From positions 5,056 through 69,055 of the forward strand of contig CAZLQZ010000003.1 of NCBI GenBank assembly GCA_964561995.1: 64,000 nt of DNA. The letters are read 5' to 3'. The notes below the pieces were generated by a model, which was not told the DNA's origin, searched no databases, and saw only the letters and a program-made list of their open reading frames with translations. Positions 17,316-59,811 of the stretch are shown piece by piece (positions within the stretch are counted from its first letter, which is position 1; each line of letters begins with the position of its first letter). The position numbers were made by a program, and so were the translations under genes. Source of the DNA: an uncultured Methanosarcinales archaeon. Lineage in GTDB: Archaea; Nanobdellota; Nanobdellia; Woesearchaeales; JABIAG01.

Positions 17316-17815
17316 CTTGTCAATGGTTGAATTTTCGTTGCGTCACCCAAACCTTCCATCTTAACTTCAATTTTACCATACTTAGTTTCATAACAAGTGT
17401 AATTATCGTCGTTAATACTAGTGAAATTTCCAATTTTAACACTTCCTAAATCAAATGCTTCTAAAACAAAACCGCCCTTTCCTAATAAAAATAAATTTTT
17501 GTTTGGAGATTCTCCTTCATAAGCTTGTAAAGCATAAGGCACTAAATTTCTATAAAAACTACAATCACTACAAGAAGTAATAAAACAAACTTGTTCGATT
17601 TTACTAGGAACATTATAAGAAAACACTTCAGAAGTACCCCTTAATCTTCTTACAGAATCTACATCTTCAAATATTTTATTAGTTAATTTAACCAAGGACA
17701 CATCATCAGAAGTTGAAAATATTGCGGCAATTCCTTTAAAAGATATTAAAAACATTAATCCTATTACTAAAGCAATTAAAATAAAAATAAATACTGTTGA
17801 TGTTTGTGCTTTCAT
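17312..17815 (-). CDS. Pilin-like protein (167 aa), translationally coupled to the giant gene
   Basis: N-terminus 'MKAQTSTVFIFILIALVIGLMFLISF' (KA|Q). Its ATG (17813-17815) overlaps the TGA of the giant ORF (17812-17814), forming ATGA. Confidence 0.6.
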   Translation of the reverse strand: MKAQTSTVFIFILIALVIGLMFLISFKGIAAIFSTSDDVSLVKLTNKIFEDVDSVRRLRGTSEVFSYNVPSKIEQVCFITSCSDCSFYRNLVPYALQAYEGESPNKNLFLLGKGGFVLEAFDLGSVKIGNFTSINDDNYTCYETKYGKIEVKMEGLGDATKIQPLTR

Positions 17816-37901: not shown

Positions 37902-38156
37902 TTAATTAGATAAAGACTCTTTTAGTAATTTTTCTTTGATTTCTTTAGAATCAGAAAAATCCTTTTTTAATTGGGATTGTTTAATTAATTCATTTTGAAA
38001 TTCATCCATAACAGATTCATTTTTTGAAGTGATTTTTACAATTATTTCATCATTTTCCTTATCTAAAGAAAAATAAGCCTTATCCAATAATGAATTTGCC
38101 GCAGCAATTATTACATCCAAAGAATAAATGCTTGTTTTTAATATTATTTCATCCAT
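37902..38156 (-). CDS. Small conserved protein (84 aa), paralogue of 48891..49214; rSAM-associated
   Basis: 'NSLLDKAYFSLDKENDEIIVKITSKN...EFQNELIKQS' against 'NSYLDKAYFLIDGDKNELMVNFMPKN...EFKNQLINYS'. It is divergent from the rSAM fusion gene. Confidence 0.5.
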   Translation of the reverse strand: MDEIILKTSIYSLDVIIAAANSLLDKAYFSLDKENDEIIVKITSKNESVMDEFQNELIKQSQLKKDFSDSKEIKEKLLKESLSN

Positions 38157-38227: not shown

Positions 38228-41173
38228 ATGAATGAGTTACAACTGTGTTTAACTAACAAATGTAATATAGGATGCAAATACTGCCATATTGATAAATCCA
38301 AAATAAAAAACATCAGTTTAAAAGTTGTTAAAAAAACAGTTAAAGAAGCTAAAAAGAACAACATTGAGTACATAAGATTAACTGGAGGAAGTATTTTTGA
38401 ACATGAAAATTTAAATGAGATTATTAATTATATTAAAGAAAGCAAAATTAAAATTATTCTTAACATATCTTCAAAAGAATTACACAAATTATATCATTTT
38501 TATGATATTCTTTTAATTTCTTACTTAGGTGTTGAAGATTTAAAGAAATTAGAACAAAAAGAAGTAATGGGTTGCATCGTATTTCAAAAAAAATGGTTAA
38601 ATCACATTAAAGAAGTAGTGAATTTTGTAGAAGATAATAATTTCGTAAGTTTCTTTTTTTTAAGAGATACAAATGAAAACAGTAAAGAATATTTTAACGA
38701 TTATTGTGAGTTTATTGAAAGAATATGTAGATTGACAGATAAAATTACTTTTGCTAATGCATTCCCATTATGTTACATTTCTTTTAACAATATAAAGTAC
38801 TGTTCGGGAAGTAAGTTTGATAATGGAAACAAAAGAATGTACATTACCCAAGAAGGGAACATTAAAGCGTCATCATATTCTAAAGTATTGGGAAATGTAT
38901 TTGAAGATGATTTAAAAGAAATTTGGCAAGATAATAAAAAGAAAATAAATGAAGACTTTGAAAAAATTGAATTGTGCAAAAATTGTAAAATTAAAGATAT
39001 TTGCAAGGGCGGGATTCATAATGATTTAATAAAAGAAAATGTTTTTGAAAACAATTTTAAAACAAAATTACAAAAAAAGATAATAAAAGTTCTACCAGAA
39101 ACAAATTATAATGCAGATTTAAGACAACTGTATTATGAAAACTCTGATTTTTTTATGAGGTATATTCCCTTTAATATTATGAAAAAAGGAATCACACCAG
39201 AAATAAATAATGAAAAACTATCACTATATGTTCATTTCCCATTTTGTAAAGGTTTTTGTAAATTTTGCAAAATTGAAAAGTTAGAAAAAAGTGAAGAATA
39301 CATTCAAGACCTATTAAAAGATATTGAAAATAATAAAGAACTTATTCAAAATAATAAAATTGAAGCAATATATTTTGGAGGCGGGACACCCCAATTAATG
39401 GGTTTAAATAATGCCAAAAAAATATTTGAAAAACTATTTTCATACGTTAAAGAAGTTAAAGAAGTAAGTTTTGAAACATTTCCTGGTTATTATGATAACG
39501 AATTGTTTAAATATATTAAAAAATATGTAAATAGAATTAGCATAGGAGTTCAATGTTTTAATGATGAAATTCTTAAAAAAATGAATAGAAATTCTTCTAA
39601 AAGAGAAATCATTGATTTTATAAAAAAAATTAAACAACTAGGTTTTGAAACAATTAACTTTGATGTGATTTATGGACTATTTATCAACAACAAAGAAGAA
39701 TTTGAAAAAGATTTTAGAGAAATTTTGGAATATAATCCTGATCAAATTACCTTACAACCCTTACATTTCATTAAAGAAATAAAATATGAAGGAAATATTG
39801 AAAATGAGATTGAGCTAAATAAAACTGCAAGAAAAATATTAAAAGAAAAAGGTTTTAATCAAACAACAGGTGAAGATTTTTCTAAAGGAAAAAAATTTCT
39901 ATATCAAAAAAATCTACTAAATGACAATAATATACTGGGGTTAGGAAATAAAACATTTAGCATAATTAACAACACCCACCTGTGGAAAGAAAATGGCATT
40001 AAAAGTTATAAATCCACCCGTTTTGACCAATTATATAGTCGGTTATTTCTTAAATCAAGAACTTTAAACTTAAATATAGAGGAATTAAACAGCTATGAAA
40101 TTAATTATAAGACAATGTTCTCAGACAGTTTAAAGTATTTATTAAAATTAGATTGGATAATAATTAAGGACAATATAATTACAATAACAAAAGAAGGAAA
40201 AGAGTATGTAGATTTAATATCAAACATATTATCATTAAGTAATTTGGACTATAAAAAATCAATAGATAAAATAAACAAAGTAAAAATAGTAGCCCCAGCA
40301 AGTAATTTGAAAGATGTAGAAGAATATGAAAAATTAAAAGTTGATGAACTATATATAGGTTTAATTGATTCTGATGATAATAAATGGCATCAAATAAATA
40401 AAAGAAATGAAAATAATGCCAATTTTACAAACATTGAAGATATTAAAAAAATTAAAGAAATAAACAAATATTCAGAAGTTTCATTGACTTTAAATGCTTC
40501 TTTTTATAATAAAAAAGGAATTAAAAAAGTTAAAAAACAAATTGAAGAAACTAAAAATTATGTTGATAACTATATAATAGCAGACCCTTCAATAATCCCT
40601 TTAGTTAAAAAAACAGGAAAAGGAATTATTTTAAGTTGTATTTCTGCCACCATGAATTCGCAAGCAGTTAAGTTCTTTAAAGGATTGGGAGTTAAAAAAA
40701 TAATTCTTCCAAGACATCTTAATATTAAAGAAATTAAAAAGATAATAAGTGAAAACAAAGACATGGAATTTGAAGTTATGATTCTTAACCAATTTTGCAG
40801 AAATGTAGATGGTCTTTGTTCAAGATGCCACATTCCAAATGGAGAATATGCATTATCTAATTGTTACATTCCTTACAAAAGCAAAGTAATTAAACTAAAA
40901 GAATGTAACGATGAAACTGTAAAAAAAGTCCATCAAAACATTGCAAATATATTAACTAAATTTAATCCAGAATGTGGAATTTGTTTTATTGAAGAATTTG
41001 AAAAATACGGAATTGATAGTTTGAAAATAGTCGGAAGAGATCACTTAACTGAAAAGAAAATAAAAGACGTTAAACTAATTAAAGAAATTTTGAAAGGTTT
41101 AACTAAAGAAGAATGTAAAGATAAATTTGAAGAAAACTTTGGATTTAAATGCAACAACAATTGTTATTATTGA
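38228..41173 (+). CDS. 981-aa triple-domain fusion: N-terminal radical SAM with a SPASM/twitch domain, central HemN/HemW-like radical SAM, C-terminal peptidase-U32-family domain
   Basis: Domain 1: 'CLTNKCNIGCKYCH' (CxxxCxxC), ending 'CKNCKIKDICKGGI' (SPASM-type CxxCx5CxGG). Domain 2: 'HFPFCKGFCKFCKI' plus 'IYFGGGTPQLM' (HemN GGGTP motif). Domain 3: 'KIVAPASNLKDVEEYEKLKVDELYIGL' resembles the U32 N-terminal 'LLAPAG..E.L..A...GADAVYLG'. TATA 'aaattttataatt' sits ~25 nt upstream, so probably leaderless. Confidence 0.7.
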   Translation: MNELQLCLTNKCNIGCKYCHIDKSKIKNISLKVVKKTVKEAKKNNIEYIRLTGGSIFEHENLNEIINYIKESKIKIILNISSKELHKLYHFYDILLISYLGVEDLKKLEQKEVMGCIVFQKKWLNHIKEVVNFVEDNNFVSFFFLRDTNENSKEYFNDYCEFIERICRLTDKITFANAFPLCYISFNNIKYCSGSKFDNGNKRMYITQEGNIKASSYSKVLGNVFEDDLKEIWQDNKKKINEDFEKIELCKNCKIKDICKGGIHNDLIKENVFENNFKTKLQKKIIKVLPETNYNADLRQLYYENSDFFMRYIPFNIMKKGITPEINNEKLSLYVHFPFCKGFCKFCKIEKLEKSEEYIQDLLKDIENNKELIQNNKIEAIYFGGGTPQLMGLNNAKKIFEKLFSYVKEVKEVSFETFPGYYDNELFKYIKKYVNRISIGVQCFNDEILKKMNRNSSKREIIDFIKKIKQLGFETINFDVIYGLFINNKEEFEKDFREILEYNPDQITLQPLHFIKEIKYEGNIENEIELNKTARKILKEKGFNQTTGEDFSKGKKFLYQKNLLNDNNILGLGNKTFSIINNTHLWKENGIKSYKSTRFDQLYSRLFLKSRTLNLNIEELNSYEINYKTMFSDSLKYLLKLDWIIIKDNIITITKEGKEYVDLISNILSLSNLDYKKSIDKINKVKIVAPASNLKDVEEYEKLKVDELYIGLIDSDDNKWHQINKRNENNANFTNIEDIKKIKEINKYSEVSLTLNASFYNKKGIKKVKKQIEETKNYVDNYIIADPSIIPLVKKTGKGIILSCISATMNSQAVKFFKGLGVKKIILPRHLNIKEIKKIISENKDMEFEVMILNQFCRNVDGLCSRCHIPNGEYALSNCYIPYKSKVIKLKECNDETVKKVHQNIANILTKFNPECGICFIEEFEKYGIDSLKIVGRDHLTEKKIKDVKLIKEILKGLTKEECKDKFEENFGFKCNNNCYY

Positions 41174-42959: not shown

Positions 42960-45900
42960 ATGGCTTTAAATAAGAAATTGTTTTTGTTATTAATAGTTCT
43001 AATAGTATCTTCATTAAGTGTTAGCGCATATTATAGGGAACTGGGACAAGGTTGCGTTGCAGGAGATTATTATGTTCCCTGTACTGGAGAATGTGAATGG
43101 CAATGTGATGGAAACGGTAACCTCGTTAAAATCTGTCAACAAGCACACGGATGGTGTTTTAATGATGATGGCAACACATGTTATTCTTGTGATTATGTTA
43201 GTGACGCAAATGAAGTTTGTGGAACAATTAATTGTTCTAACTTAAATTATAATGATGAAAGAAGTCAAATGTGTAGCTCGTTAGGAAATTTACTTGAAAC
43301 ACAGCACATATTTTCTTGTAACTCGGCTTTAAAAATGTGTAAAGAAGAACGAAGTGGAGACCCAGTTGAAGAATATTCAGGTGAATGTTGTCCAGCTCAA
43401 GGAATCATTAGTCAAGGATCTGGAACTATTTCCTCAGGACAATTTGATTCTTCATTTGATATGTATATTGATAAAAACCCATCAAATAATGACGAAATTA
43501 ATGGTTTAACTAATGAATTTCATAATGTAATTAATGCAAATAGATTAAAAGTATATTTTGAAGTTAGTTTTGATTCAACAGATAGTGATCAATATCCTTC
43601 TTCAGTTACATTAAGGGCTAGCGGTGACAAAACAACTAATGTGTTCCATCATTCTGCTGAATCATCAACAGGAACATTAAGTTTTCAAGGAATTTTGCCG
43701 AGTGGAACTAAAGAACTTAAAGTAATAAAAGATTGTCCAATTGATGATGGTAATAAAAATTGTCCTCTTGTTTCTTTTTCAGTATCTGTAGAATGTACTG
43801 AATGTGAAGACAAAGCATGGGCTTTTGATTATGATGGAGATGGTTATTATTCATTATTTACTGAAAATTCAAATGATTGTTTACCTCCTTATGAATCAAA
43901 CAGTTGTGAAGGTTTATTTCCTCTTGGTACTTGTTCTGGACCGTGTGTGGCATGTGAAAGTTCGATTTTCTGGACTTCTGTAACTTCAGATGAATTTAAC
44001 AACAAAATAGAAAAAGGATGTGAAGCTTCTGCAATTAGTCAAGATTGTTTAGATGCAGATAATGATGTATTAGATAATCCCGAGACACTTTATTGCGAAG
44101 ATAAAGATAACGATAAATATGGCAATCCAAATAAATGTGAATTAAGAAGTAGTTTAACATTAAGTGAAATCAACTCAAGAAGTATGAAAAAGATTTATGA
44201 TTTAATTGATAAAAATGATTGCGATGATAACTCTGTAACAGGAGCTTCTAAAAACCCAAACTCAACTTATGTATTAGATAATGACAGAGATGAAAATTGG
44301 GGAAGTTCAACAAAAAGTTGTAATGATCCGGATGGAATTGCAAACAAATGGCAATTGTATACTGATCAAGACTTTGATTGTGATGATGATGATGAATTTG
44401 TTTCATTTCCTAAATCTTGCAATTGTTATGATTATCAAGAAGGTTATACTTTAAGTGATAATTATAATAATGATTATTTTTGTTACAACATTACTAAAGA
44501 ATCTAGTACTCTTGCTATAGATGCAAACTCAGAATTTGAAATTAAAACAACACCTTCAAATTTGAAATGGGTTTTAGCAACAAAAAGAAAAGATCAAAAT
44601 GGTGCACAAATAGATTTTGCATGTCCACTAAATACTTGTCCTTTAACTTTAACAACAGAAAAGAAGTGTGTTGAAGTTGGAACCTTTTGGTCAGATGATG
44701 GAAGAGCAGAAATGGGTAACAATCTTTGTGAATTAAAAGATGAAAATGCAGAGTGGAGCTCAAGAATTGCAAAAGCAAGCTCTTTTTTAATTGCAGTAGG
44801 TGAAGCATCCAAAGAAGATTTTGTGGTTCATTGTGATGATTTTGATAACATTAAACATACTTATCAAGCATCCGAATTCCCAAAACCGGAAGATTTTGGT
44901 GTGGCAGATCTTGAAATTGAATGGCAAACATTAACTAATGAACCTGGCAACGTAGGAGAAGGATGTGTTTTAATAATTAATAAAGATTATACTAATGATA
45001 TTTCTTCAGGAAATAAACCAGGAGAAGATTCTCAAATTGTTGCAATAGCAGTACCATTTGTTCAAGATATTGCAGATAACTATCTAAGAATTGATTTTGA
45101 TGACCCTCGTCCAGAAGGTAACTGGTTAGTTCAAGACAGTTTATATGTTCATGAACCCTACAAATTGTTATTTATTTTAGAAGGACAAGGGGCAAACTCA
45201 GACTCATTAAAGGGCTGGTTTAATGAGATAATACAACCAAATAATGCCTTTTTAAACATGATAAGATTTTTAAGAAGTCCATTAAAACACCTTCAAGAAA
45301 TAATGAGTGAAGATCCAAGAATATCATTTTTTCAAGAAAACTCTTTTTTTAAATTTAACAAAATGTTTTTAGGAAAAGAATCAACAACCTATTTTTATTC
45401 AATATTAGAAAAACAATCTAATGATAATAATAAACTTACTGTGAAAATAACAAATCCAGAATATAATGAAGCAGAAAATGAAAAACTAAAAAAATTCATT
45501 TCAGATTCTTGTAATCCTGATAAAGGTTTTTTAAATAATCAAAATTTTGATTATTGTGCAGGAGTTGATAGTATAGAGGGAAACTTTGAAAATACAAAAA
45601 CTACAAACCTGGTTGGAGATGTTGTTGGTTTAACAATAGACGACCTCGATAATTCTGAAGGAAATTATTTATTTAATTATTTAAGCAGAAAAATTAGATT
45701 GCAAAATAATGACGAAGGAACTGCCAAGTTTTACACTTCTCAAAAAGAATGTACTGGTACAGACTTAAACACTTGTACTGAAAAGACTTGTTTTGAAGCA
45801 GTTGATTGTAGCGTAGGATTATGTATGTATGATGAAATAACTGTTTGTGATGATGGAACAGATGGTTGTTGTCCTTATGGTTGTAGCTTTGAAGATAACG

Positions 45901-47132
45901 ATTTAGATTGTGAAGCAGTCAATGAAGTAATTGGTTTTAATGTGAGATATGATAATTCATGTAATGACGATGAAGTTACGCTTCTTAGTATGTCGGATTC
46001 AGTTAATGGTCATGCTTCCTTACCTAATTCACCACAACAATTTAGCAATAAGATTTGTTTAAAACCTGACAAAGGAACTTTTACTGTTAATTCCGGTACA
46101 AGTTGTGCGGGTACAGAAGTTATTTCACTATATCAAACATCAGACAGCCACATCGGAATAAATGGACCACAAAAAATATGTCTTAGTCATTCACAATATT
46201 ATGTTTCTTGTTTAGTTGGAACAATTGAAGAATGCAATAGTTACAATATAATTACAAGTTTAACTGGTGAAACTAACGCTCACATTGGTGAAGAAAAATC
46301 ATATGATACTAAAATATGTTGTAAATTGATAGAAGCACAACCAGCAAAAAGATGTTATTCAAACTCAGATTGTGATGATACCAAATATTGTAATGGTCAA
46401 GAAACTTGTAACTCACAAACAAAAACATGTAATCCAGTTACACCTGTTGATTGCTCAAATAATAACATAGATGAAATTGAAGAATGTGATTATAATCCTG
46501 ACGGAATCAGCGCAACCATGGATTCTTTCCCTGCTTTCACTTCACAATGTGATGAAAGTATTGATGCATGTACTTCGACTCCTATTGAAATAACAAGCAC
46601 ATGCGATACTTCTTGCGATGCTCAATGTGTTGCAAATGCTGATTGTGATGATGAAGATGATTCCACTACAGATATATGTGAAAATGATTGTGTTTGTTCA
46701 AACATGAATACAGTTCATTTAATAGATGGTTGGAACTCATTATCTTTTCCAAGTAATACTCAAATAACAGTAAATGAACTTGAAGAACAATGTCCAGAGG
46801 TTACAGGTTCAATATGGTATTTTGAATCCAGTTCATACAAAGAAGAAGAAGTGAAATTTAACCCTGAAAACGGCTATTGGATTTATTCAAAATCAGAATG
46901 TGACTTTAAAATGATTTTTGATTATGATTTCGAGGATGTTAGTTTAGAATCTGGTTGGAACTTTATTGGATCTGATTCTCAATTAGAAAGTCTTAATTCT
47001 ATTTATAGACAAGAAATTGTTGGTCCAGGATGGGTTTACAATGGTGAAACATACGAAAGTACTGAAGATTTAATACCTGGAAAAGGAACTTGGGTAACAA
47101 CAGCAGGTGGAAGTCCACCGTCGAGTCCTTAA
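42960..47132 (+). CDS. Giant (1,390 aa) secreted Cys-rich surface protein with a duplicated ~60-aa W/Y-rich C-terminal module
   Basis: Sec signal 'MALNKKLFLLLIVLIVSSLSVSA|YY'. More than 90 Cys. C-terminal repeats 'DGWNSLSFPS...GSIWYFE...NGYWIY' and 'SGWNFIGSDS...GPGWVYNGETY...GTWVT'. No C-terminal TM. Confidence 0.75.
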   Translation: MALNKKLFLLLIVLIVSSLSVSAYYRELGQGCVAGDYYVPCTGECEWQCDGNGNLVKICQQAHGWCFNDDGNTCYSCDYVSDANEVCGTINCSNLNYNDERSQMCSSLGNLLETQHIFSCNSALKMCKEERSGDPVEEYSGECCPAQGIISQGSGTISSGQFDSSFDMYIDKNPSNNDEINGLTNEFHNVINANRLKVYFEVSFDSTDSDQYPSSVTLRASGDKTTNVFHHSAESSTGTLSFQGILPSGTKELKVIKDCPIDDGNKNCPLVSFSVSVECTECEDKAWAFDYDGDGYYSLFTENSNDCLPPYESNSCEGLFPLGTCSGPCVACESSIFWTSVTSDEFNNKIEKGCEASAISQDCLDADNDVLDNPETLYCEDKDNDKYGNPNKCELRSSLTLSEINSRSMKKIYDLIDKNDCDDNSVTGASKNPNSTYVLDNDRDENWGSSTKSCNDPDGIANKWQLYTDQDFDCDDDDEFVSFPKSCNCYDYQEGYTLSDNYNNDYFCYNITKESSTLAIDANSEFEIKTTPSNLKWVLATKRKDQNGAQIDFACPLNTCPLTLTTEKKCVEVGTFWSDDGRAEMGNNLCELKDENAEWSSRIAKASSFLIAVGEASKEDFVVHCDDFDNIKHTYQASEFPKPEDFGVADLEIEWQTLTNEPGNVGEGCVLIINKDYTNDISSGNKPGEDSQIVAIAVPFVQDIADNYLRIDFDDPRPEGNWLVQDSLYVHEPYKLLFILEGQGANSDSLKGWFNEIIQPNNAFLNMIRFLRSPLKHLQEIMSEDPRISFFQENSFFKFNKMFLGKESTTYFYSILEKQSNDNNKLTVKITNPEYNEAENEKLKKFISDSCNPDKGFLNNQNFDYCAGVDSIEGNFENTKTTNLVGDVVGLTIDDLDNSEGNYLFNYLSRKIRLQNNDEGTAKFYTSQKECTGTDLNTCTEKTCFEAVDCSVGLCMYDEITVCDDGTDGCCPYGCSFEDNDLDCEAVNEVIGFNVRYDNSCNDDEVTLLSMSDSVNGHASLPNSPQQFSNKICLKPDKGTFTVNSGTSCAGTEVISLYQTSDSHIGINGPQKICLSHSQYYVSCLVGTIEECNSYNIITSLTGETNAHIGEEKSYDTKICCKLIEAQPAKRCYSNSDCDDTKYCNGQETCNSQTKTCNPVTPVDCSNNNIDEIEECDYNPDGISATMDSFPAFTSQCDESIDACTSTPIEITSTCDTSCDAQCVANADCDDEDDSTTDICENDCVCSNMNTVHLIDGWNSLSFPSNTQITVNELEEQCPEVTGSIWYFESSSYKEEEVKFNPENGYWIYSKSECDFKMIFDYDFEDVSLESGWNFIGSDSQLESLNSIYRQEIVGPGWVYNGETYESTEDLIPGKGTWVTTAGGSPPSSP

Positions 47133-47141
47133 TTAAATTTC

Positions 47142-47384
47142 TTAATAAGAACTATGATTTGCATGTCTAATAAAATTTTCTTCATAATTAGCAGTCCAAT
47201 CACTAGTTTCAACAGCAGAAACACTTGTTGCAAATAAAGTAGTAGCAGCAATTAAACTTAAAGAAACTACGGCCTTTTTACTTATTTTTCCTTCTTCGTT
47301 TGAAAGAAACATACCGACCTTCTTTTTAATCTTAGGCAAATTCATAATAGTTAAAATAATAATATTATATTTAAACTTTTCCAT
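47142..47384 (-). CDS. Small ORF immediately downstream of the SPASM rSAM: hydrophobic leader plus 23-aa polar tail; candidate precursor or secreted peptide
   Basis: 'MNLPKIKKKVGMFLSNEEGKISKKAVVSLSLIAATTLFATSVSA|VETSDWTANYEENFIRHANHSSY'. It overlaps the rSAM stop by 14 nt. Confidence 0.4.
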   Translation of the reverse strand: MEKFKYNIIILTIMNLPKIKKKVGMFLSNEEGKISKKAVVSLSLIAATTLFATSVSAVETSDWTANYEENFIRHANHSSY

Positions 47385-48735
47385 CTAACCATTGCATAAA
47401 TACTTCTTTAGACTTTAAATCTCGCAACTTTTCAAAAATATAATCAAATTGAGCCATATGTAATTTGCACCAATTGCTAGTAGGAATACAACCTATTATA
47501 GACCCCTGGTCTGCATAATTTAAAACAGGACATACACCACAAAACGGCTTATAAACACAACTATTACAAACATAAGAGTCATTTATTGAACTACTAATGA
47601 TTGTTTTAGCTTTGTCTGAAGTTGTTAAATTCTTTAATTTATCTTTACAACTTCCAATACAAAACAAATCATCATTTAACATCCTGCCTTCATCGCAAGT
47701 ATAAATTTTACCATCATAATTGTATAAAACTTGCCCAATTATTGCACCACAGGGACTTCTTAAATCCAAATAATTAGGTTCCTTACCAAATATCTTTTGA
47801 AGAATTATTAATGCTTTTCTTTCTTTAATATTAATACCCTCAATATTCTTTTGAATTATATAATCAACAGACTTTTTCCAAAATTCAATGAATTCTTCAA
47901 CACTATAATAAATATCAACATTATCTCTTGCATCACCTAATCTGTTAAGATTTCTTAAATGGATAGATAATATATTATTTTTGATATATTCATCAATAAT
48001 TTCTTTATAGTAATTTAATGAGTCTTTAGTTACTGTAACTAAAGCATCAATATGATTGATTTTTTTAATCCATTTTATAGTTTCACTATATTGGAAACGG
48101 TTTTTATTATGAATTAATTCTGGACCATCTAATGAAGTACAAATTCCCACATTATTTTTCACTAAAAAATCTAATTTTTCATCAGTCATCAAAACAAGAT
48201 TTGATACTAATGAGAATTTGATATTTTTATCTTGTTTTCTTTTGTTTACTTCATCAATAATATGTTTTAATACTTCGAAATTCAATAATGGTTCCCCACC
48301 TTGAAACTCAATATTTAAACTGTTAGAATTTGATTGAAAAATTAAATCAATTACTTTGTTAGCAGTTTCAACAGTCATATCATAATTTGCTTCATTAACT
48401 GGTTTAGAACTTGCATGACAATATACACAATTGTGATTACATCTTAAAGATAAAATAATTATATGTAAAGATGGACCATTGAACAAAAATTGTTTTGATT
48501 TTCTTAAATCTTTTTTGATTTGTTCTTTATTATTGTCAGTTATAATTAATCCTTTTTCTTCTAATTGATTCAAAGTTTCACTAGAGAGATTATTTAACTC
48601 ATTTTTATCTATAAACATCCAACTACCTTGATCTGAAGTTAACAAATAATCGTCTTTTAAATTACCTTTTACATATAATTTACTTTTATAATTCTTTATC
48701 ATTTTGTAGTGCCAACACATAATTGCAAAATTCAT
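47371..48735 (-). CDS. Radical SAM/SPASM-domain peptide-maturase-like protein with a ~80-aa N-terminal extension (possible RRE)
   Basis: 'LRCNHNCVYCHAS' (CxxxCxxC), 'IEFQGGEPLLN', and a C-terminal Cys-rich SPASM region 'CNSCVYKPFCGVCPV...GCIPTSNWC'. The true start may be an internal Met (M12 or M40). Confidence 0.75.
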   Translation of the reverse strand: MNFAIMCWHYKMIKNYKSKLYVKGNLKDDYLLTSDQGSWMFIDKNELNNLSSETLNQLEEKGLIITDNNKEQIKKDLRKSKQFLFNGPSLHIIILSLRCNHNCVYCHASSKPVNEANYDMTVETANKVIDLIFQSNSNSLNIEFQGGEPLLNFEVLKHIIDEVNKRKQDKNIKFSLVSNLVLMTDEKLDFLVKNNVGICTSLDGPELIHNKNRFQYSETIKWIKKINHIDALVTVTKDSLNYYKEIIDEYIKNNILSIHLRNLNRLGDARDNVDIYYSVEEFIEFWKKSVDYIIQKNIEGINIKERKALIILQKIFGKEPNYLDLRSPCGAIIGQVLYNYDGKIYTCDEGRMLNDDLFCIGSCKDKLKNLTTSDKAKTIISSSINDSYVCNSCVYKPFCGVCPVLNYADQGSIIGCIPTSNWCKLHMAQFDYIFEKLRDLKSKEVFMQWLDGKV

Positions 48736-48922
48736 AAGGTATTAATTCATTTTCCTGTTTTAAAATAATAATTAAAATATCATTTTCAAAACTTGCCTCT
48801 ATAAAATCTGAAAAATCTTTAATTCCTTGATTTATTGCTTCTTTATCGTAAAATAAAGCATTGAATTTAATTTTATATTTATTATCTTGTTTACAAATCA
48901 TCTTCAAATAATACCTCTTCAA
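48686..48922 (-). CDS. Small hypothetical ORF (78 aa) between the 107-aa protein and the rSAM
   Basis: An ORF overlapping the rSAM's annotated 5' end; no motifs; coding status uncertain. Confidence 0.25.
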   Translation of the reverse strand: MKRYYLKMICKQDNKYKIKFNALFYDKEAINQGIKDFSDFIEASFENDILIIILKQENELIPYEFCNYVLALQNDKEL

Positions 48923-49214
48923 AATAATCAGGATTGTTAGTTAAAACCGTTCTTGCAACAATTGTTTCTTTCAAATTTTTAGTTTTATCAAACTCATTGT
49001 AATAAAAAGAATAATTGATTAATTGATTTTTAAATTCTAATTCTAAATTTGATTCTTTTTTATTTTTAGGCATAAAATTAACCATTAATTCGTTTTTATC
49101 CCCATCAATTAAAAAATAAGCTTTATCTAAATATGAGTTAATAGCATTTCTAACTACTTTAATTGGAAAAATTTCTAAATTTACTTTAAATTGGAAAAAC
49201 ATGATTAAAATCAA
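48891..49214 (-). CDS. Small conserved protein (107 aa), paralogue of 37902..38156; first gene of the rSAM cassette
   Basis: Alignment with the 84-aa protein (see 37902..38156). Both sit next to SPASM rSAM genes. Confidence 0.5.
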   Translation of the reverse strand: MILIMFFQFKVNLEIFPIKVVRNAINSYLDKAYFLIDGDKNELMVNFMPKNKKESNLELEFKNQLINYSFYYNEFDKTKNLKETIVARTVLTNNPDYFEEVLFEDDL

Positions 49215-50515: not shown

Positions 50516-51460
50516 ATGATAAATCTAATTATAATATCAATACTTGGAATTATTATTAGTTATCAAGATTTTAAAAATGGAAAAATTAGAAATAAGTGGA
50601 TAATTTTAGGCATTATAGCAGGATTAATTATCAATTATTCATATTTTTTATATGATTTTTTAAATCATGTTTTTAATATAACCATATTGTATAGTTTCTT
50701 ATTAAATTCCTTAATTACCATCTTTCTAGGTTATTTATTATGGCATTTTAAATTTTGGAGTGCTGGTGATGGAAAACTGTTCATAATGTTTTCATTTTTA
50801 TTACCATTAGAATTTTACAAAAGCTTTTTTCCTTCATTTACAATCATATTTAATTCTATTGTTCCAATAGGAATTGTTCTTTTTTTAATGAGTCTTAATA
50901 AAAATAATTTTATAAATAGTAAAAAAGATTTAATTAAAGAATTTAATTTACTAAATATAATTGAAAGTTTGATTTTGATTGTTGGATTTTATTGGGGTAT
51001 TTCCCAAACTTTATTTTTTATTAATGAAGTATTAAAATACTTCTTTGTTGCTCTATTGGTTATATTCTTAAAACACAAATTTAATAAAATAATTTATGCA
51101 GGGATTGTTTTAGTTATTATTAGAACCTTTTTTGAAAATATCCTTAGTTTTGATTTTATAATTCAAACAATAATAATATTTGTTATTTTTCATGCTACTA
51201 GAAGCATAATAATCCCATTAACAAATAATCAATATGTTAAAAAAACAAAAATTGAAAAATTAAAACCAGGCATGTATTTAGAAAAATGGTCATCTAGCTT
51301 AAATACTGAAGATATAAAAGAATTAAACAAAAAAAATCTAAAAGAAGTAAATGTTGTTGAAACTATGCCTTTTGCAATTTATCTTTTTATTGGAACACTT
51401 TTAACCATCATATTACAAACTGACTTGTTATCTTTTTTAATAAAGTTTTTTTTTAGTTAA
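50516..51460 (+). CDS. Archaeal type IV prepilin peptidase (A24 family, FlaK/PibD/EppA-like)
   Basis: Polytopic membrane protein. First catalytic Asp in 'SYQD18FKNGKIRNK' (cf. FlaK D18, D-x5-I-P/R-N). Second in 'WSAGD85GKLF' (GxGDxK motif). The spacing fits the family. Confidence 0.7.
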   Translation: MINLIIISILGIIISYQDFKNGKIRNKWIILGIIAGLIINYSYFLYDFLNHVFNITILYSFLLNSLITIFLGYLLWHFKFWSAGDGKLFIMFSFLLPLEFYKSFFPSFTIIFNSIVPIGIVLFLMSLNKNNFINSKKDLIKEFNLLNIIESLILIVGFYWGISQTLFFINEVLKYFFVALLVIFLKHKFNKIIYAGIVLVIIRTFFENILSFDFIIQTIIIFVIFHATRSIIIPLTNNQYVKKTKIEKLKPGMYLEKWSSSLNTEDIKELNKKNLKEVNVVETMPFAIYLFIGTLLTIILQTDLLSFLIKFFFS

Positions 51461-51778
51461 AAGTCTATCAAAAGACTTTAAGAATGTTGCATCTTCTTTT
51501 TCAAAAGAAAGAATTTGCGTTTTCACTTTATACTTTTTGCACAATTTATTATTTTGTTGCATTCTGCCAAAGACGATTGCTTTGTTTTCAGATTTTATCC
51601 AATCGGAAAAAGAAAATCCAATGATGTCATGTTTTTGCTTAGCAATCTTTGCTAAAACTTGATTCATACCCGAATTTCTATGAAAAATAAAATCTTTTCT
51701 TTTACTAAATTCTAAATAGTATATTAATTGATTACCTTTTTCAAATGTCTTTCTATCATTTCCTGTAGCTTTATACAT
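51437..51778 (-). CDS. Hypothetical protein, 113 aa
   Basis: ORF with no recognisable motifs. Confidence 0.35.
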   Translation of the reverse strand: MYKATGNDRKTFEKGNQLIYYLEFSKRKDFIFHRNSGMNQVLAKIAKQKHDIIGFSFSDWIKSENKAIVFGRMQQNNKLCKKYKVKTQILSFEKEDATFLKSFDRLLTKKKLY

Positions 51779-52531: not shown

Positions 52532-55500
52532 TTAATTGTAAATTTGTTGACATACTGTTCCTGAATCGCCAAATGTAGTATCTGTTGTTGATATACATAT
52601 TTCACTATAATTGGTAGGTAAAGCTATTGTTTTTGAATCGATAGTATTTTGACCAGAAAGAAGAATACCATCGTCTCCTTCAATAATGTTTAATCTATCT
52701 GTTTGATTAATTAAATATATTTCAAAATATAAATTTAATCTACAAGCGTATGCGTCATAATTAATATCATAAACAAAATCATCTCCCGAAGTTGTTACCC
52801 CTATATTTTTTATTCTTATTACCGTTTCATCACTAGTAATACATGGCGGAACTTCTACAATTTCAGTATTTATTGTTTGGTTTGCACAAGTTGGATAACA
52901 ACTTAAATCGGTAAAACAAGCTTGATCGGGTGGAAGTCCATTACATCCATTATAATCGCATTGATTATCATTATCATTATCGATACCATCTTGACATTGT
53001 GATGTTCCATCATCTTCCCTATCATCTTGTGAATTAGTACAACCGGGGTCATCTAAATCAATAAGTAAATCATTATCATTATCAAGTCCATCTTGACATT
53101 GAGTAGTTGCTGCAGCTTCATTATTATCGGTATTTCTACTACAGCCAGGATCACCCGGTAAATCAATTCCATCAATAGTACAACCATTAACATCACAACT
53201 TCCATCTCCATCGTTATCGATACCATCTTGACATTCTGAAGTTTCAGGATATTCATCATCATCCCAAGCATCTTCACAGCCAGGATCATCTAAATCAATC
53301 AAATCGTCACCATCATCATCAATTTGATTACTACATTTAGTTTGACCAAATTGGAAACATAGTGGTTGGTTATCAACACTTTCGTCAGAAACATAAATAC
53401 AAAACTCATTAAAAGAAAGCGAGCTTTCATAAATATCATTATCTGTTAATCTATAACCTGTACTAAGGATAGTTGAATGAAGTTCTTCAATTAAAATATC
53501 TTGTCCAGTAAAAGACATTTGAGATATTTCTACTTGTTGTGAGCTTTCATCTTTTATACACATAAATGAATCACCATCATAATTTCCCGCAGAAACGTAA
53601 CCAGACTCACAAACATCACCTAATTTAGGAATAAAAGTAGTTACAGATCTTTGAACACAAAGGCTTTTGTTATCTACATCTCCCTTATTAACAAAATTAA
53701 TAGGGCACTCGTTGGTAATTTGAAAATAAGGAACAAACTCGGGCAATATGCAAAAGTTGAAACCTTCCTTGGTTTGGTATTCAACCCCATAATCACTAGG
53801 ACAAGTTTGATACCTAATTTGTACTAAATCTTTAGTTGTTGTAAAATTAACAACATTTGAATCAATTAATCCTGAACCTGAAACAAACCTATTCCTAAAA
53901 TATACATCTACAAAAACATCTTCATTGCATGAAAAAATATCATAATCGTATTGATATTTGTAAATGCCACCTTCAAAAGTTTTTGAACCAGCATTTCCAA
54001 TGATATCAGTTGTAAATGAATCCATACAAGATTCTGGCCTAAATCTAACGCCCAAATCTAATAAACCGCCACACAGTTTTTGAGGTTCATGTAACATATT
54101 TTCATCAATAGAATAATAAGTATAGCCATCGGGTCCAATTACAGAACCATCTTCATTAATATCATAATCATTTCCATCTCGATCTTCACCAGTATCTGTG
54201 TCTACATTGCCCCAAGGTGTGGTTACTGTTGCAAAACCAGTTATTGATGTAAAAGCACCAGTTAAAGCATGTAAACTTGGTACACTTAAAAAAGTTAAAT
54301 CAACTTCAATTTCTCCATTTTCAGATTTATCTTTTGCGGGAGTTGGAAAATCTTTTTCTTTAGTATAATTATTGCCTGCAAGTTTTACTTTTACATTAAC
54401 ATTTTTGACATAACTATCTCCGCCTTGATCATATTTAAGTTTAAGTTGAATGTTATTCCTATTAACAATTATTTGATCTAAACAAACTTCATCAATTATA
54501 TCTCTATCATTGTCGAGACTACATTCGTCCAAGTTTTTAGTAAAGGGTATTTTTGTAATATATGCTTGATAAAAAATTGAATCAGGAGTATTATTTTCTC
54601 TACCAACAATATCTGTAAAATTTAATTCAATTTCTAATCTTTGAGGTGGAGCAGTAATACCTTGAGGTACTTCAAAAACCTCTACTTCAGAAGTTGGTGT
54701 TGATGCTTTTCTTGAATTTGAATCATATAACACAGTTTTAATATCATGAGTTCCTTTTGTTAAATTGACTTTTATCATTTTTGAACTATTAGTTTCAACA
54801 TTCCCAATTTGAATTGACTGCTTACCATCATAAACTACATAAGTTAAATTACTTTCATCATTATGATTAACAAAAATTCTAAAATTAAACTCGGGTAAAG
54901 AAATCATTTCTTGTTCTAATGTTGAAGTTATTGTAAAATCTGATACATTTACTTCGATTGTTTTACTATCGTGATGTAAATTACCATCCAAATCTTCCAA
55001 TTTAATATACAGTTCATGAATTCCATCTTCCAGAGGAGTTGGAATCGTCAAAGTATTATTTGCAGGCATATAACCCCACGCAAGATTATTACTATCTTCA
55101 TCTAAATAAACTTTATACCTTAATATTTTACTTTGATTGTCGGATGCATTTATTACTAAATCAAAATTAGGGGTGTTGATTTTTTCTCCATTAAAGGGAC
55201 TTATTATTTCAACAATAGGCTTAATTCTGGTTTGAAAATAATCCTTACTTCTATCAACTGGTGTTTCAATGTAATCACAAAAATTCTTAGTAAAAGAAGA
55301 ATCAATAATTGTGGTTTCTCGTTTGGGAACAAATGTGCTACTTGTTGTTACAATGTTTCCTTCTTGATGACAGAAGTCTTCATCTTCATCTAAAATAATA
55401 ATTAAGTCATTATTTTCCATAGTAAATTTGCACTGTCCTTCATAAAATGAAACAGGTTGGGTATCTACTGCATCTAAATAATGATATATTTCATAATCAA

Positions 55501-56401
55501 AAAGTAAAGCAGAATTATTTCTTAATAAATTAGACATCAATCCTAAAGATTTTTCATTAATATTTACATAGTCTAAATTTGACTTTTTTGCAAAAATAAT
55601 ATTTGTTCTATTTTTACTTGAATTCCAAAATGGCGAAGAAGGAATACAAGAAGTTGGTGATAAGAAAAAAACATTTGGATTGCCCTTAGGTTCATTATTA
55701 ATCAAAGTTTGAATTTTTACACGTTCCATTTTCCAGATCATAGGATGATCAGATGAATCCCAAGTTCCAGAATATGTTAAATCATTAGCATAATTATCTT
55801 CATTTAAACCAAAATCATAAATTCTAAAAGTATCATTATAATATCTTGTTGTTAATCTTACTTGAACGTGATCTTGTTCTTTCATTAAGTTCGATTCAAT
55901 TTTAAACAAATCGTTAATTTTACCTGAAAAAGGTGTTGGAGTTATTGAAAGTACACCATCGGTGTCTACAAACATATAGCCCCCTTGATCAGCAGGCCAA
56001 GGTGGTGCAACTAAACATTCCCGGTATTGTTGACATTCTCTACCTTGAATAAAATCATTTCCTTCACGGTCACAATAGTTCTTAGCATAATTAGTATAAC
56101 AATACCCTTCATCATCAATACAGCATCCAATATTGCATTCATCTAAATCAAAACAAGACTCTTGATCATGAAAAAAATTGCTTGGACAATCTGTAAAAGA
56201 AGTTTCTGTACATGTTAAATCACAACAACCATGATTTGGTAAAACAACATTTCCAGTAATTTGTTGTTTAGGTTTTAATGTAAATGAAAAAGAAACTAGT
56301 ATTATTGCGAGTATTGTTAAAGATATAATTATCTTATTTGTTCTATTAATTCCCTTTCCGTTTTTCTTTTTATTCTTAGTCATTTGTAATAAGCCGTACA
56401 T
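52532..56401 (-). CDS. Giant (1,289 aa) N-terminally anchored Cys-rich surface protein with MopE-like 'CxDGxDNDxDG' putative metal/Ca-binding repeats near the C-terminus
   Basis: N-terminal TM 'KIIISLTILAIILVSFSFTL'. Repeats 'CQDGIDNDGDGSCDVNGC', 'CQDGLDNDNDLLIDLDDPGC', 'CQDGIDNDNDNQCDYNGC' and 'CSNQIDDDGDDLIDLDDPGC'. Overlaps the upstream gene by 22 nt. Confidence 0.75.
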   Translation of the reverse strand: MYGLLQMTKNKKKNGKGINRTNKIIISLTILAIILVSFSFTLKPKQQITGNVVLPNHGCCDLTCTETSFTDCPSNFFHDQESCFDLDECNIGCCIDDEGYCYTNYAKNYCDREGNDFIQGRECQQYRECLVAPPWPADQGGYMFVDTDGVLSITPTPFSGKINDLFKIESNLMKEQDHVQVRLTTRYYNDTFRIYDFGLNEDNYANDLTYSGTWDSSDHPMIWKMERVKIQTLINNEPKGNPNVFFLSPTSCIPSSPFWNSSKNRTNIIFAKKSNLDYVNINEKSLGLMSNLLRNNSALLFDYEIYHYLDAVDTQPVSFYEGQCKFTMENNDLIIILDEDEDFCHQEGNIVTTSSTFVPKRETTIIDSSFTKNFCDYIETPVDRSKDYFQTRIKPIVEIISPFNGEKINTPNFDLVINASDNQSKILRYKVYLDEDSNNLAWGYMPANNTLTIPTPLEDGIHELYIKLEDLDGNLHHDSKTIEVNVSDFTITSTLEQEMISLPEFNFRIFVNHNDESNLTYVVYDGKQSIQIGNVETNSSKMIKVNLTKGTHDIKTVLYDSNSRKASTPTSEVEVFEVPQGITAPPQRLEIELNFTDIVGRENNTPDSIFYQAYITKIPFTKNLDECSLDNDRDIIDEVCLDQIIVNRNNIQLKLKYDQGGDSYVKNVNVKVKLAGNNYTKEKDFPTPAKDKSENGEIEVDLTFLSVPSLHALTGAFTSITGFATVTTPWGNVDTDTGEDRDGNDYDINEDGSVIGPDGYTYYSIDENMLHEPQKLCGGLLDLGVRFRPESCMDSFTTDIIGNAGSKTFEGGIYKYQYDYDIFSCNEDVFVDVYFRNRFVSGSGLIDSNVVNFTTTKDLVQIRYQTCPSDYGVEYQTKEGFNFCILPEFVPYFQITNECPINFVNKGDVDNKSLCVQRSVTTFIPKLGDVCESGYVSAGNYDGDSFMCIKDESSQQVEISQMSFTGQDILIEELHSTILSTGYRLTDNDIYESSLSFNEFCIYVSDESVDNQPLCFQFGQTKCSNQIDDDGDDLIDLDDPGCEDAWDDDEYPETSECQDGIDNDGDGSCDVNGCTIDGIDLPGDPGCSRNTDNNEAAATTQCQDGLDNDNDLLIDLDDPGCTNSQDDREDDGTSQCQDGIDNDNDNQCDYNGCNGLPPDQACFTDLSCYPTCANQTINTEIVEVPPCITSDETVIRIKNIGVTTSGDDFVYDINYDAYACRLNLYFEIYLINQTDRLNIIEGDDGILLSGQNTIDSKTIALPTNYSEICISTTDTTFGDSGTVCQQIYN

Positions 56402-58572: not shown

Positions 58573-59811
58573 TTAAACCCAAATATGTAAAATTGGAGAA
58601 AGTAAAATCAAAAATAAAATTAACCTACCAACATTGGTTGTGATCAAAAAAGACAATCTAAATAACCAAACTAAAATATTTAAAACAAAAGAATTGATAT
58701 TTTTGGGTTTAGTTACTAAATTAAAAGCATTGTACTTGTACCATTTAAAAGAAACTATTTTTCCCTCTTTTTTATAATCTTCATACATTTGTGTACCAGG
58801 AAATGGTGTTAAAACTGAAAATAAACTTAAGTTCAAATTTGCTTTGAAAGTGAAAACGAACAATTCCCATAATGACTTGTAAGTATCTTCATCAAAACCA
58901 AACATGAATGTACCTCGAATTTTTATCTTTCTTTTCTTGATTCGTTTAATTAACTCTAAATAATCAAGATACATGTTTAACTTACCAGGATTATTAGCAA
59001 TTACTTTTTCATTAATAGTTTCAAAACCAACATGTAACCTATAACAACCTGATTTTTTAGCCAAATCAAGTAAACTTTCATCTTTTGCAATATCTATAGA
59101 ACATAATGCTTCCCACCTTATTTTCAAAGGAATTAAAGCTTTAAACAAAGCTCTGGCATAAGAAACATTTGCAAAAATATTATTATCATTAAATAAAAGT
59201 CCATACTTTCTAAAACCTTTAATTGATTTGACTTCTTCAATAACTTTTTCAATAGGGACATGACGAATATTTCCTTCATAAAGTTTAGGAATCATACAGA
59301 ATTTACATTTGAATTTACAACCACGAGTTGTTTGGATTGTATTTTGTTTTTTATTATCACTTAAATTCAAAAAACCTTCATGATAATATTTCCAAAAATC
59401 ATCAACAGCTTCGCCGTAATAAATTTGTTTTAAACAGTCATTTTCATAATCTTCAATAATTTGTTTCCAAATACTTTCAACTTCCCCAATAATTACAGAA
59501 TCACAATATCTTAATGCTTCTTTAACATTAAACATAACGTGACATCCGCCCATAATTACTTTTGCACCTTTCTTTTTAAACTTATTAGCATGTTCATAAG
59601 CACGATACACATTAGAAGTAAAAGAAGTAATTCCAACTAATGCTTTTTCATACTTAACAAAGAAGGGTTGATTATAAACTTTAATTTCATAACCAGGAGT
59701 CATAGATTCCAGTTCAGCAAATACGGGAGGATAACCAAATTTGAAAAACTTTCCAATTAACCCCGAAAGCGTTCCTCCAAAAGCAGGATTAACTAAAATT
59801 AATTTTTTCAT
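58573..59811 (-). CDS. B12-binding-domain radical SAM protein
   Basis: N-terminal Rossmann-like B12-binding domain ('MKKLILVNPAFGG...') then 'TTRGCKFKCKFCMIPKLYEG' (CxxxCxxC). C-terminal hydrophobic tail. Confidence 0.7.
   Translation of the reverse strand: MKKLILVNPAFGGTLSGLIGKFFKFGYPPVFAELESMTPGYEIKVYNQPFFVKYEKALVGITSFTSNVYRAYEHANKFKKKGAKVIMGGCHVMFNVKEALRYCDSVIIGEVESIWKQIIEDYENDCLKQIYYGEAVDDFWKYYHEGFLNLSDNKKQNTIQTTRGCKFKCKFCMIPKLYEGNIRHVPIEKVIEEVKSIKGFRKYGLLFNDNNIFANVSYARALFKALIPLKIRWEALCSIDIAKDESLLDLAKKSGCYRLHVGFETINEKVIANNPGKLNMYLDYLELIKRIKKRKIKIRGTFMFGFDEDTYKSLWELFVFTFKANLNLSLFSVLTPFPGTQMYEDYKKEGKIVSFKWYKYNAFNLVTKPKNINSFVLNILVWLFRLSFLITTNVGRLILFLILLSPILHIWV

Follow-up and report, generated by a model that had tools for sequence, protein, structure and literature searches.

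A probable HxsC-less, A3-type His-Xaa-Ser peptide-maturation cassette linked to an A24-family peptidase in a DPANN-like archaeon

INTRODUCTION

The His-Xaa-Ser (Hxs) system of peptide maturation was reportedly first predicted in silico by Haft and Basu in 2011. The family is already known and curated, and it has barely been studied experimentally. The present report concerns a stretch of 64,000 nucleotides of archaeal DNA (contig CAZLQZ010000003.1, positions 5,056 to 69,055 of the forward strand), referred to below as the window, whose minus strand carries four neighbouring open reading frames (ORFs) between window positions 47142 and 49214. These ORFs probably constitute an HxsC-less, A3-type Hxs cassette of a DPANN-like archaeon, to which the gene of an A24-family peptidase is linked. 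The locus is a stripped-down variant of the known family, and the link of a peptidase to the Hxs cassette was previously undescribed. The chemistry and function of the cassette, as proposed here, were inferred from sequence.

The four-gene HXS system of Escherichia coli blocks the entry of phage DNA (Li et al., Nat Commun 2026, PMC13128918). The non-canonical N-terminal processing and the export of HxsA depend on all of HxsB, HxsC and HxsD, as does a site-specific modification of +8 Da in the last HxS repeat, whose His and Ser are both indispensable; HxsC is a binding partner of HxsD (PMC13128918). The +8 Da change was not reconstituted in that study, nor were the roles of HxsB and HxsC separated. 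In the accompanying survey 99.7% of the systems belonged to Pseudomonadota and 99.8% comprised four genes, and neither archaea nor peptidases are mentioned (PMC13128918). With the HXS systems of E. coli and Klebsiella (gene order HxsD-HxsB-HxsC-HxsA) the window shares an HxsB above the curated cutoff and a small protein of the HxsD family. Both substrates combine an N-terminal region for export or processing with a C-terminal His-Xaa-Ser motif, and in E. coli the last repeat is both modified and essential. The window differs in having no HxsC and two HxsD paralogs instead of one. Its substrate of 67 to 80 aa contains one HxS motif and no peptidoglycan-binding domain, whereas that of HXS has about 214 aa and five basic repeats. 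A long conserved leader, the linked A24 gene, an acidic core and an archaeal host further set the window apart.

Cassettes of the HxsA3 type (NF038309, NF038315), exemplified by the reference loci L086-L090, have in common with the window the leader PKxKK..FL..EEG..K.G followed by a hydrophobic stretch, and HxsD-like, HxsD, HxsB and A24 genes are present in both. L086-L090, however, encode HxsC (250-290 bits) and HxsA3 proteins of 173-272 aa with 12-14 HxS motifs and Thr/Pro-rich tails, whereas HxsC is missing from the window and the peptide of the latter scores below the HxsA3 cutoff. The maturases CteB, which belongs with SCIFF, and SuiB (PDB 5wgg and 5v1q) show the same succession of an N-terminal recognition element for peptides that are made on ribosomes and modified after translation (RiPPs), a radical S-adenosylmethionine (SAM) core and a SPASM domain that contains two auxiliary clusters. 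Maturases of this type are the best matches to the window enzyme in sequence and fold, yet identity is just 17-19%. The window substrate, moreover, has no Cys for a thioether, and the HxsD-fold partners have no counterpart in those systems.

MATERIALS AND METHODS

The comparison set consisted of 80 genome loci with an HxsB alignment, which came from DPANN archaea, bacteria of the candidate phyla radiation (CPR) and others. The fetched loci were examined by tblastn and with home-built hidden Markov models (HMMs), and an exhaustive profile search was carried out for the peptide. Proteins were identified with NCBIfam models and their curated bit cutoffs, and domains with Pfam. Contigs from IMG/VR with HxsB at 32-35% identity, including L086-L090, served as distant reference loci. 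The A24 link was found by clustering of the flanking ORFs and subsequent targeted searches.

RESULTS

Composition and conservation of the cassette

Four minus-strand ORFs were present, as the earlier note on this DNA had described; in order of increasing coordinates they start with ATG, ATG, TTG and TTG, and neighbours overlap by 14, 50 and 32 nt if the longest ORFs are used. They are not products of chance, since HMM E-values of 3e-133, 1.4e-12, 3.4e-10 and 2e-5 were obtained and the set is kept in 55 of the 80 loci. HxsD was found upstream of HxsB in 73 loci and an HxsD-like protein in 67, and the leader peptide was present in 60; the 55 loci are those in which all three small genes occur together with the radical SAM gene. 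The earlier note had made its proposal depend on the conservation of the small ORFs in related genomes, and the objection that they are unconserved thus falls away. Its reading of the locus as a RiPP-type SPASM maturase with a leader/core peptide and small accessory proteins was borne out; the existing His-Xaa-Ser naming and the A24 link had escaped it. The nearest relatives of HxsB were found in Woesearchaeota, Pacearchaeota and Nanoarchaeota, which makes a DPANN archaeon the most likely source of the window.

The HxsB enzyme

The ORF at 47371..48735 (minus strand, ATG start) encodes a radical SAM/SPASM maturase of 454 aa. It matched the HxsB model TIGR03978 with 445.1 bits (cutoff, 370; E = 2.9e-133) over residues 26-450. 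The CX3CX2C motif of the radical SAM core lies at residues 99-106 (C99, C103 and C106; 48418-48441, minus strand), and seven SPASM cysteines are located at positions 329, 347, 390, 393, 399, 402 and 423 (47467-47751, minus strand). All of these cysteines were invariant or nearly so in the alignment. The models for anaerobic sulfatase-maturating enzymes (anSMEs) and quinohemoprotein maturases yielded 91.5 and 97.8 bits, respectively, compared with 445 bits for HxsB, and the enzyme can therefore be assigned to neither of these groups, which the earlier note had named as the assignment that would speak against it.

The radical SAM core is preceded by an N-terminal domain of about 85 residues, which had been suspected to be a RiPP recognition element (RRE). 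In the AlphaFold (AF2) model of HxsB (pTM, 0.82) residues 21-80 (48496-48675, minus strand) form three strands and then three helices, with a block-mean predicted local distance difference test (pLDDT) score of about 52-81. The best Foldseek match to the model was CteB (5wgg, E = 4.8e-18). The model could be aligned from end to end with CteB, TigE and SuiB, which are maturases that contain an RRE, whereas with anSME only the core was aligned. The N-terminal domain is thus a predicted RRE of the PqqD-like kind, and because of the fold and the full-length match to RRE maturases the proposal of an RRE-containing RiPP maturase holds at the level of the model. As a separate observation, some loci (L061:6742-9936, L024:8535-9359 and L032:8398-9845) contained either HxsB paralogs in tandem, with an HxsD-like gene for each of them, or a pair of precursor genes.

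The precursor peptide

The last ORF (47142..47384, minus strand) comprises 80 aa from its ATG. Translation probably starts at Met14 (47345), as indicated by homology to the related peptide P0002, giving a product of 67 aa and a gap of 25 nt after the HxsB stop codon. Residues 1-30 of this form (MNLPKIKKKVGMFLSNEEGKISKKAVVSLS; 47256..47345, minus strand) make up a conserved leader, as seen in a sequence logo of 200 family peptides. The leader is followed by the hydrophobic segment LIAATTLFATSVSA (47214..47255, minus strand) with an AxA-like end (SVSA) and by the predicted core or mature region of 23 residues, VETSDWTANYEENFIRHANHSSY (47145..47213, minus strand), which was assigned by homology. 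The core region is acidic (pI 4.8, net charge -3) and closes with the motif HANHSSY (47145-47165, minus strand). That the product ends in VETSDWTANYEENFIRHANHSSY had been stated correctly before; the simple hydrophobic leader assumed at that time was not found, as the hydrophobic segment is preceded by some 30 residues that form a charged and conserved stretch.

In the logo the leader showed P in 97%, F in 94%, L in 91%, E in 100%, G in 98% and K in 98% of the peptides. It ends in the family with K-x-G (G in 90%) directly before the hydrophobic stretch, an arrangement resembling that of prepilins. The mean hydropathy of the same 200 peptides revealed an A-x-A pattern after about 16-18 hydrophobic residues, and the precursor may accordingly undergo signal-type cleavage at its AxA-like site. 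P0002 (82 aa; leader LPKIKKxV..FL..EEGKISKK) was the sole non-self homolog in a word-indexed search. It has the identical C-terminal HANHSSY, and in the block from this motif to the stop codon the two genes differ by three synonymous and no non-synonymous codon changes.

The leader peptide gene lies directly downstream of HxsB in 45 of the 80 loci. Related peptides consist of the same leader, a hydrophobic segment with an AxA-like end, a variable spacer and repeats of the HGSHSSHGSH type, which are long in most of the leader-bearing peptides. The 57 complete family peptides contained between 0 and 64 HxS motifs (median, 6), and 20 peptides had three or fewer; 29 end in H-x-x-[W/Y], and 20 of these in H-x-S-[W/Y]. 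The HxsA3 model was matched by 48 of 49 downstream peptides of relatives and the HxsA4 model by 31. The exhaustive profile search produced 416 cluster representatives at E<=1e-3, among them many short forms of the '...NHSSY' kind. From the shared leader, the genomic position, the profile matches and these short relatives, the window peptide is judged to be a genuine minimal member of the HxsA3-type family. The earlier suggestion that the W/Y/H/N-rich 23-mer is a plausible core agrees with the family leader shared in 60 loci and with the conserved HANHSSY.

Two further arrangements of peptide genes were observed. At L001:7257-8249, in a related metagenome contig, a gene for RNase P p30 is followed directly by P0002, and genes for A24, HxsD and HxsB are missing both from the space between the two and from the 8 kb upstream; maturation genes may have been deleted there, or the maturase may be encoded at a remote site. 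In CPR bacteria (L037:3311-4825, L041:9700-11265, L056:8496-9989 and L080:8382-9956) the leader and HxS repeats belong to a fusion protein whose conserved C-terminal domain comprises about 300 aa; no Pfam match was obtained for this domain in the two examples scanned (L037 and L056).

HxsD and HxsD-like proteins

The ORF of 107 aa at 48891..49214 (minus strand, TTG start; 103 aa from 49202 in the public gene call) probably encodes HxsD. It reached 40.2 bits with TIGR03976, which is below the cutoff of 50, and a precomputed match to the Pfam family HxsD (PF27806) is available. The LYW/LLNDYxLRE motif is degenerate in this protein (QLINYSFYY). The ORF of 78 aa at 48686..48922 (minus strand, TTG start), probably translated as 71 aa from 48901 as in the public gene call, gave 47.6 bits with the HxsD_rel model NF038315 (cutoff, 41), and such an HxsD-like gene sits between HxsD and HxsB in the 67 loci in which it was found. 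Profile-profile comparison with hhalign revealed HxsD and HxsD-like to be paralogs (probability, 97.5%). The small proteins, which had been regarded as possible accessory partners, could in this way be given names.

The single-sequence model of HxsD (pLDDT, 59.9) produced weak ferredoxin- or ACT-like matches (best E = 4e-3, TM<0.5). No solved structure related to HxsD by sequence was found, and the word-indexed protein search returned no HxsD homologs.

Absence of HxsC

HxsC (TIGR03977) was not found in the 64-kb window, nor was it found in the loci of the DPANN and CPR relatives. The other radical SAM ORFs of the window encode a fusion protein of 981 aa and a B12-binding protein, neither of which is HxsC. 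The fusion was considered as a displaced HxsC and was rejected after its N-terminal radical SAM/SPASM domain had been tested. A second radical SAM gene on the same strand within 2.5 kb of HxsB was present in 14 of the 80 loci; these enzymes were PapB/CefB-like except in two Spirochaete loci, which contained HxsC/HxsC4-like domains with scores below the cutoffs. Because the window has no HxsC and the second radical SAM enzymes of relatives are mostly PapB/CefB-like, the cassette appears to be an HxsC-less derivative of the A3-type system. The role of HxsD is uncertain here, since HxsC, its binding partner in E. coli, is absent from the window. PapB/CefB-like second SPASM maturases stand beside HxsB at L013:6373-7920 and in L012, L027, L036, L045, L052 and L080, and the Cys-rich tail of the L013 peptide suggests hybrid HxS/thioether products.

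The linked A24 peptidase

The gene at 50516..51460 (plus strand) encodes a FlaK/PibD-type membrane aspartyl protease of family A24 (Pfam Peptidase_A24, 32.9 bits; cutoff, 26.5). It is oriented divergently from the cassette at a distance of 1.3 kb from HxsD, with two unrelated genes between. Members of this A24 family possess the conserved residues D18 (97%) and D85 (100%, in WxAGDGKLF) and a PFAPF motif, and they also match Arc_PepC, which corresponds to the architecture of FlaK/PibD. The window ORFs of at least 100 aa that recurred in related loci were those for HxsB, HxsD, the A24 peptidase and RNase P p30 only.

A24 homologs were detected in 43 of the 80 HxsB loci, in archaea and in several bacterial phyla. 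In 33 loci the gene is the immediate upstream neighbour of HxsD, with both on one strand, and in three bacterial loci it directly follows HxsB. Two types of loci were distinguished among the IMG/VR contigs. Type 1 has the order HxsD, HxsD-like, A24, HxsC, HxsB, X and HxsA3 (61 bits for HxsD-like, 250-290 bits for HxsC and 90-115 bits for HxsA3) and the same leader as the window. Type 2 has the order HxsD, HxsB, HxsC and HxsA2, an ordinary signal peptide and neither A24 nor HxsD-like. The A3-type leader, HxsD-like and A24 thus co-vary, and since they travel together in three different gene orders, their co-occurrence speaks for functional coupling and against synteny alone. Because of this co-variation the A24 protein is a candidate leader peptidase.

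As in processing by PilD, FlaK and PibD, the A24 and Arc_PepC domains with both catalytic Asp residues are combined with a basic leader and a Gly before the hydrophobic helix. The leader differs from that of type IV prepilins in its length of about 30 residues and its strong conservation, and the basic residue is at position -3 rather than -2; the window peptide has Ser at -1. No pilus assembly genes were found nearby. A resemblance of the leader to Flp pilins (FLxxExG) was considered and dropped, as Pfam gave no support: none of 49 peptides matched Flp_Fap.

Other features of the window

The window has a G+C content of about 28%, and at about position 38000 the coding strand and the GC skew change sign, with minus-strand genes before and plus-strand genes after this point. 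It is rich in radical SAM genes. The fusion protein of 981 aa (38228-41173, plus strand) joins three domains, namely radical SAM/SPASM at the N-terminus, HemN/HemW-like radical SAM at residues 324-597 and, at the C-terminus, U32 peptidase (residues 686-967). The B12-binding radical SAM protein is encoded at 58573-59811 (minus strand), and genes of this kind occurred near HxsB in just 2 of the 80 loci. The archaeal RNase P p30 (component 3; 51437-51778, minus strand) comprises only 113 aa and is devoid of about 70 N-terminal residues of its homologs; synteny of its gene and the Hxs cassette was observed in 9 DPANN loci.

Giant Cys-rich secreted proteins of 1390 and 1289 aa are encoded at 42960-47132 (plus strand) and 52532-56401 (minus strand), respectively. 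Neither gave a Pfam or NCBIfam match, and the sulfatase-type motif (C/S)xPxR was present in neither of them. The protein of 1289 aa contains repeated acidic Cys modules of the type QCQDGIDNDGDG. A single uninterrupted ORF of 5682 aa with 147 cysteines extends over 17812-34860 (minus strand).

A terminator-like hairpin at 47106..47119 (minus strand), 23 nt past the stop codon of the peptide gene, was indicated weakly by a consensus scan. Scans of the window for tRNAs and Rfam families gave no match and so provided no marker of taxonomy. No defence genes were found near the cassette, and the 2023 release of PADLOC, which predates HXS and has no model for it, returned irrelevant weak matches only in the window. 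A scan for sigma-70 promoters was discarded, as it has no meaning for an archaeon.

DISCUSSION

Proposed maturation pathway

The leader of the precursor would dock in the cytoplasm on the RRE of HxsB, with HxsD and HxsD-like acting as accessory or scaffold partners. HxsB would then direct SAM-derived radical chemistry at the terminal His-Xaa-Ser(-Tyr) motif. Triceptide synthases of the radical SAM/SPASM kind form a crosslink between C2 of His and the C-beta of the residue at i+2 (PMC11499958). The motifs of the triceptide synthases HaaB, HtkB and YhhB are of the form aromatic-X-X, including His at position 1 (PMC11499958), and His-Xaa-Ser is in the same register. The likeliest product would hence be a side-chain crosslink from His in position 1 to Ser in position 3, as in a triceptide cyclophane. 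Shared chemistry is a hypothesis by analogy, and HXS of E. coli yields +8 Da rather than the -2 Da of triceptides. The hydrophobic segment of the precursor would insert into the membrane, and the A24 peptidase would act at the cytoplasmic face, where it would remove the leader by a cut at the K-x-G/S position that immediately precedes the hydrophobic stretch. The modified C-terminal tail would come to lie outside the cell, either anchored in the membrane or freed by signal peptidase at SVSA|VE.

In its general form the proposal is that DPANN archaea and CPR bacteria possess a streamlined pathway with one radical SAM enzyme, in which a prepilin-type A24 protease is dedicated to removal of the RiPP leader, a pair of HxsD-fold proteins takes the place of HxsC and HxsD, and the product is a membrane-anchored or secreted peptide with a His-Ser(-Tyr) crosslink. 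This is put forward tentatively, as a possibility that still has the balance against it.

Points against the assignment and alternative explanations

Several observations weigh against the assignment to an A3-type Hxs cassette with a dedicated peptidase. The missing HxsC is essential in E. coli, where it is the partner of HxsD, and the acidic linker and C-terminal DPxGIAxPWEEKYGK tail that 34 of 44 homologs possess are both missing from the window HxsD, where no remnant of a frameshift was visible. HxsB is no closer to the triceptide synthases than to other SPASM maturases (65 bits with the YhhB model; cutoff, 445). The window peptide reached 24-25 bits with the NCBIfam HxsA3 model (NF038309; cutoff, 65), and the match covers the leader only (peptide residues 16-62 of 80 and profile positions 2-50 of 81), the repeat part being missing. 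Besides HAN it contains a single strict HxS motif (HSS), further domains are missing, and Ser directly precedes the hydrophobic stretch, at a position where Gly is found in 90% of the family. P0002, its closest homolog, is found in a contig without a maturase nearby.

Other points concern the peptidase. The A24 gene of the window is on the opposite strand and separated from the cassette, its linkage in DPANN could partly be a matter of inherited synteny, given that synteny was seen for RNase P p30 too in the 9 loci mentioned, and the AxA site would permit ordinary processing by signal peptidase without A24. The same cassette might therefore work with the precursor as a Sec substrate, signal peptidase I cutting after SVSA and releasing the modified 23-mer, and A24 would be a syntenic housekeeping prepilin or pre-archaellin peptidase. 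The AxA-like site is found after the hydrophobic segment throughout the family, 23 loci have a leader peptide and no detected A24, and the leader neither has the strict class III [KR]-G motif nor resembles Flp pilins in Pfam. This explanation is nevertheless considered unlikely, given that A24 occurs, in three gene orders, in more than half of the loci and spans archaea as well as several bacterial phyla, that it is present in the HxsA3-type loci of viral contigs and not in HxsA2-type loci with ordinary signal peptides, and that a Gly conserved to 90% directly precedes the hydrophobic stretch.

The product could also act in the manner of E. coli HXS, as an effector that is retained in the envelope and blocks the entry of viral genomes, with the hydrophobic helix replacing the peptidoglycan-binding domain as the anchor. 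The maturation machinery is homologous to that of HXS, whose effector is processed, exported and anchored in the envelope (PMC13128918), long His-rich arrays are common among relatives in the clade, and HxsB cassettes occur on IMG/VR contigs. The core is acidic with a single HxS motif, however, for which reason the published electrostatic mechanism of DNA binding by basic repeats is inapplicable here. There are also no defence genes nearby and no PADLOC match (from a release that predates HXS), and HxsC is absent. By analogy the product may still be an envelope-located antiviral factor like E. coli HXS, but a function of this kind is regarded as rather doubtful. Decay of the cassette to a relic whose substrate is degenerate and which makes no functional product would fit the single motif, the Ser in place of Gly, the missing HxsD tail, the inverted A24 gene and the related genome that retains the peptide without the enzymes. 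Yet all catalytic and cluster cysteines are retained in HxsB, whose score exceeds the curated cutoff, all ORFs are intact and the changes in the C-terminal motif are synonymous only. Peptides with few HxS motifs are moreover frequent in the family, and a '...HSSY' subtype recurs beside intact HxsB, so that decay is very improbable. In the alternative of the earlier note the enzyme is an anSME-like maturase whose substrates are the Cys-rich surface proteins nearby; this reading could appeal to the presence of anSME among the structural neighbours of HxsB and to the large Cys-rich proteins that flank the cassette. The anSME score (TIGR03942) is far below its cutoff of 349, though, anSME has no counterpart of the N-terminal domain of the window enzyme, and the giant proteins are not conserved beside HxsB in other loci. 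As they also contain no (C/S)xPxR motif, this alternative is unsupported and can practically be dismissed.

Significance

The assignment to an HxsC-less Hxs cassette of the A3 type therefore stands as probable. The radical SAM chemistry of Hxs systems is unsolved, and the locus offers a natural minimal case with one radical SAM enzyme, a precursor of 67 residues and one terminal His-Xaa-Ser-Tyr. The reaction of HxsB is directly testable here, because a single radical SAM enzyme, a small precursor and a single motif are involved. Hundreds of related loci exist in DPANN archaea, CPR bacteria and other phyla, compared with the near-exclusive occurrence in Pseudomonadota that was published. A 2023 review of RiPP leader proteases makes no mention of A24 or prepilin-type enzymes; the A24 link suggests a route of leader removal that is absent from that review, and a route of the A24 type may explain the non-canonical N-terminal processing in E. 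coli. If the proposed pathway is true, this would be the first case of an A24 protease taking part in RiPP maturation, and the cassette would possibly be an archaeal counterpart of the antiviral barrier that HXS forms in the envelope.

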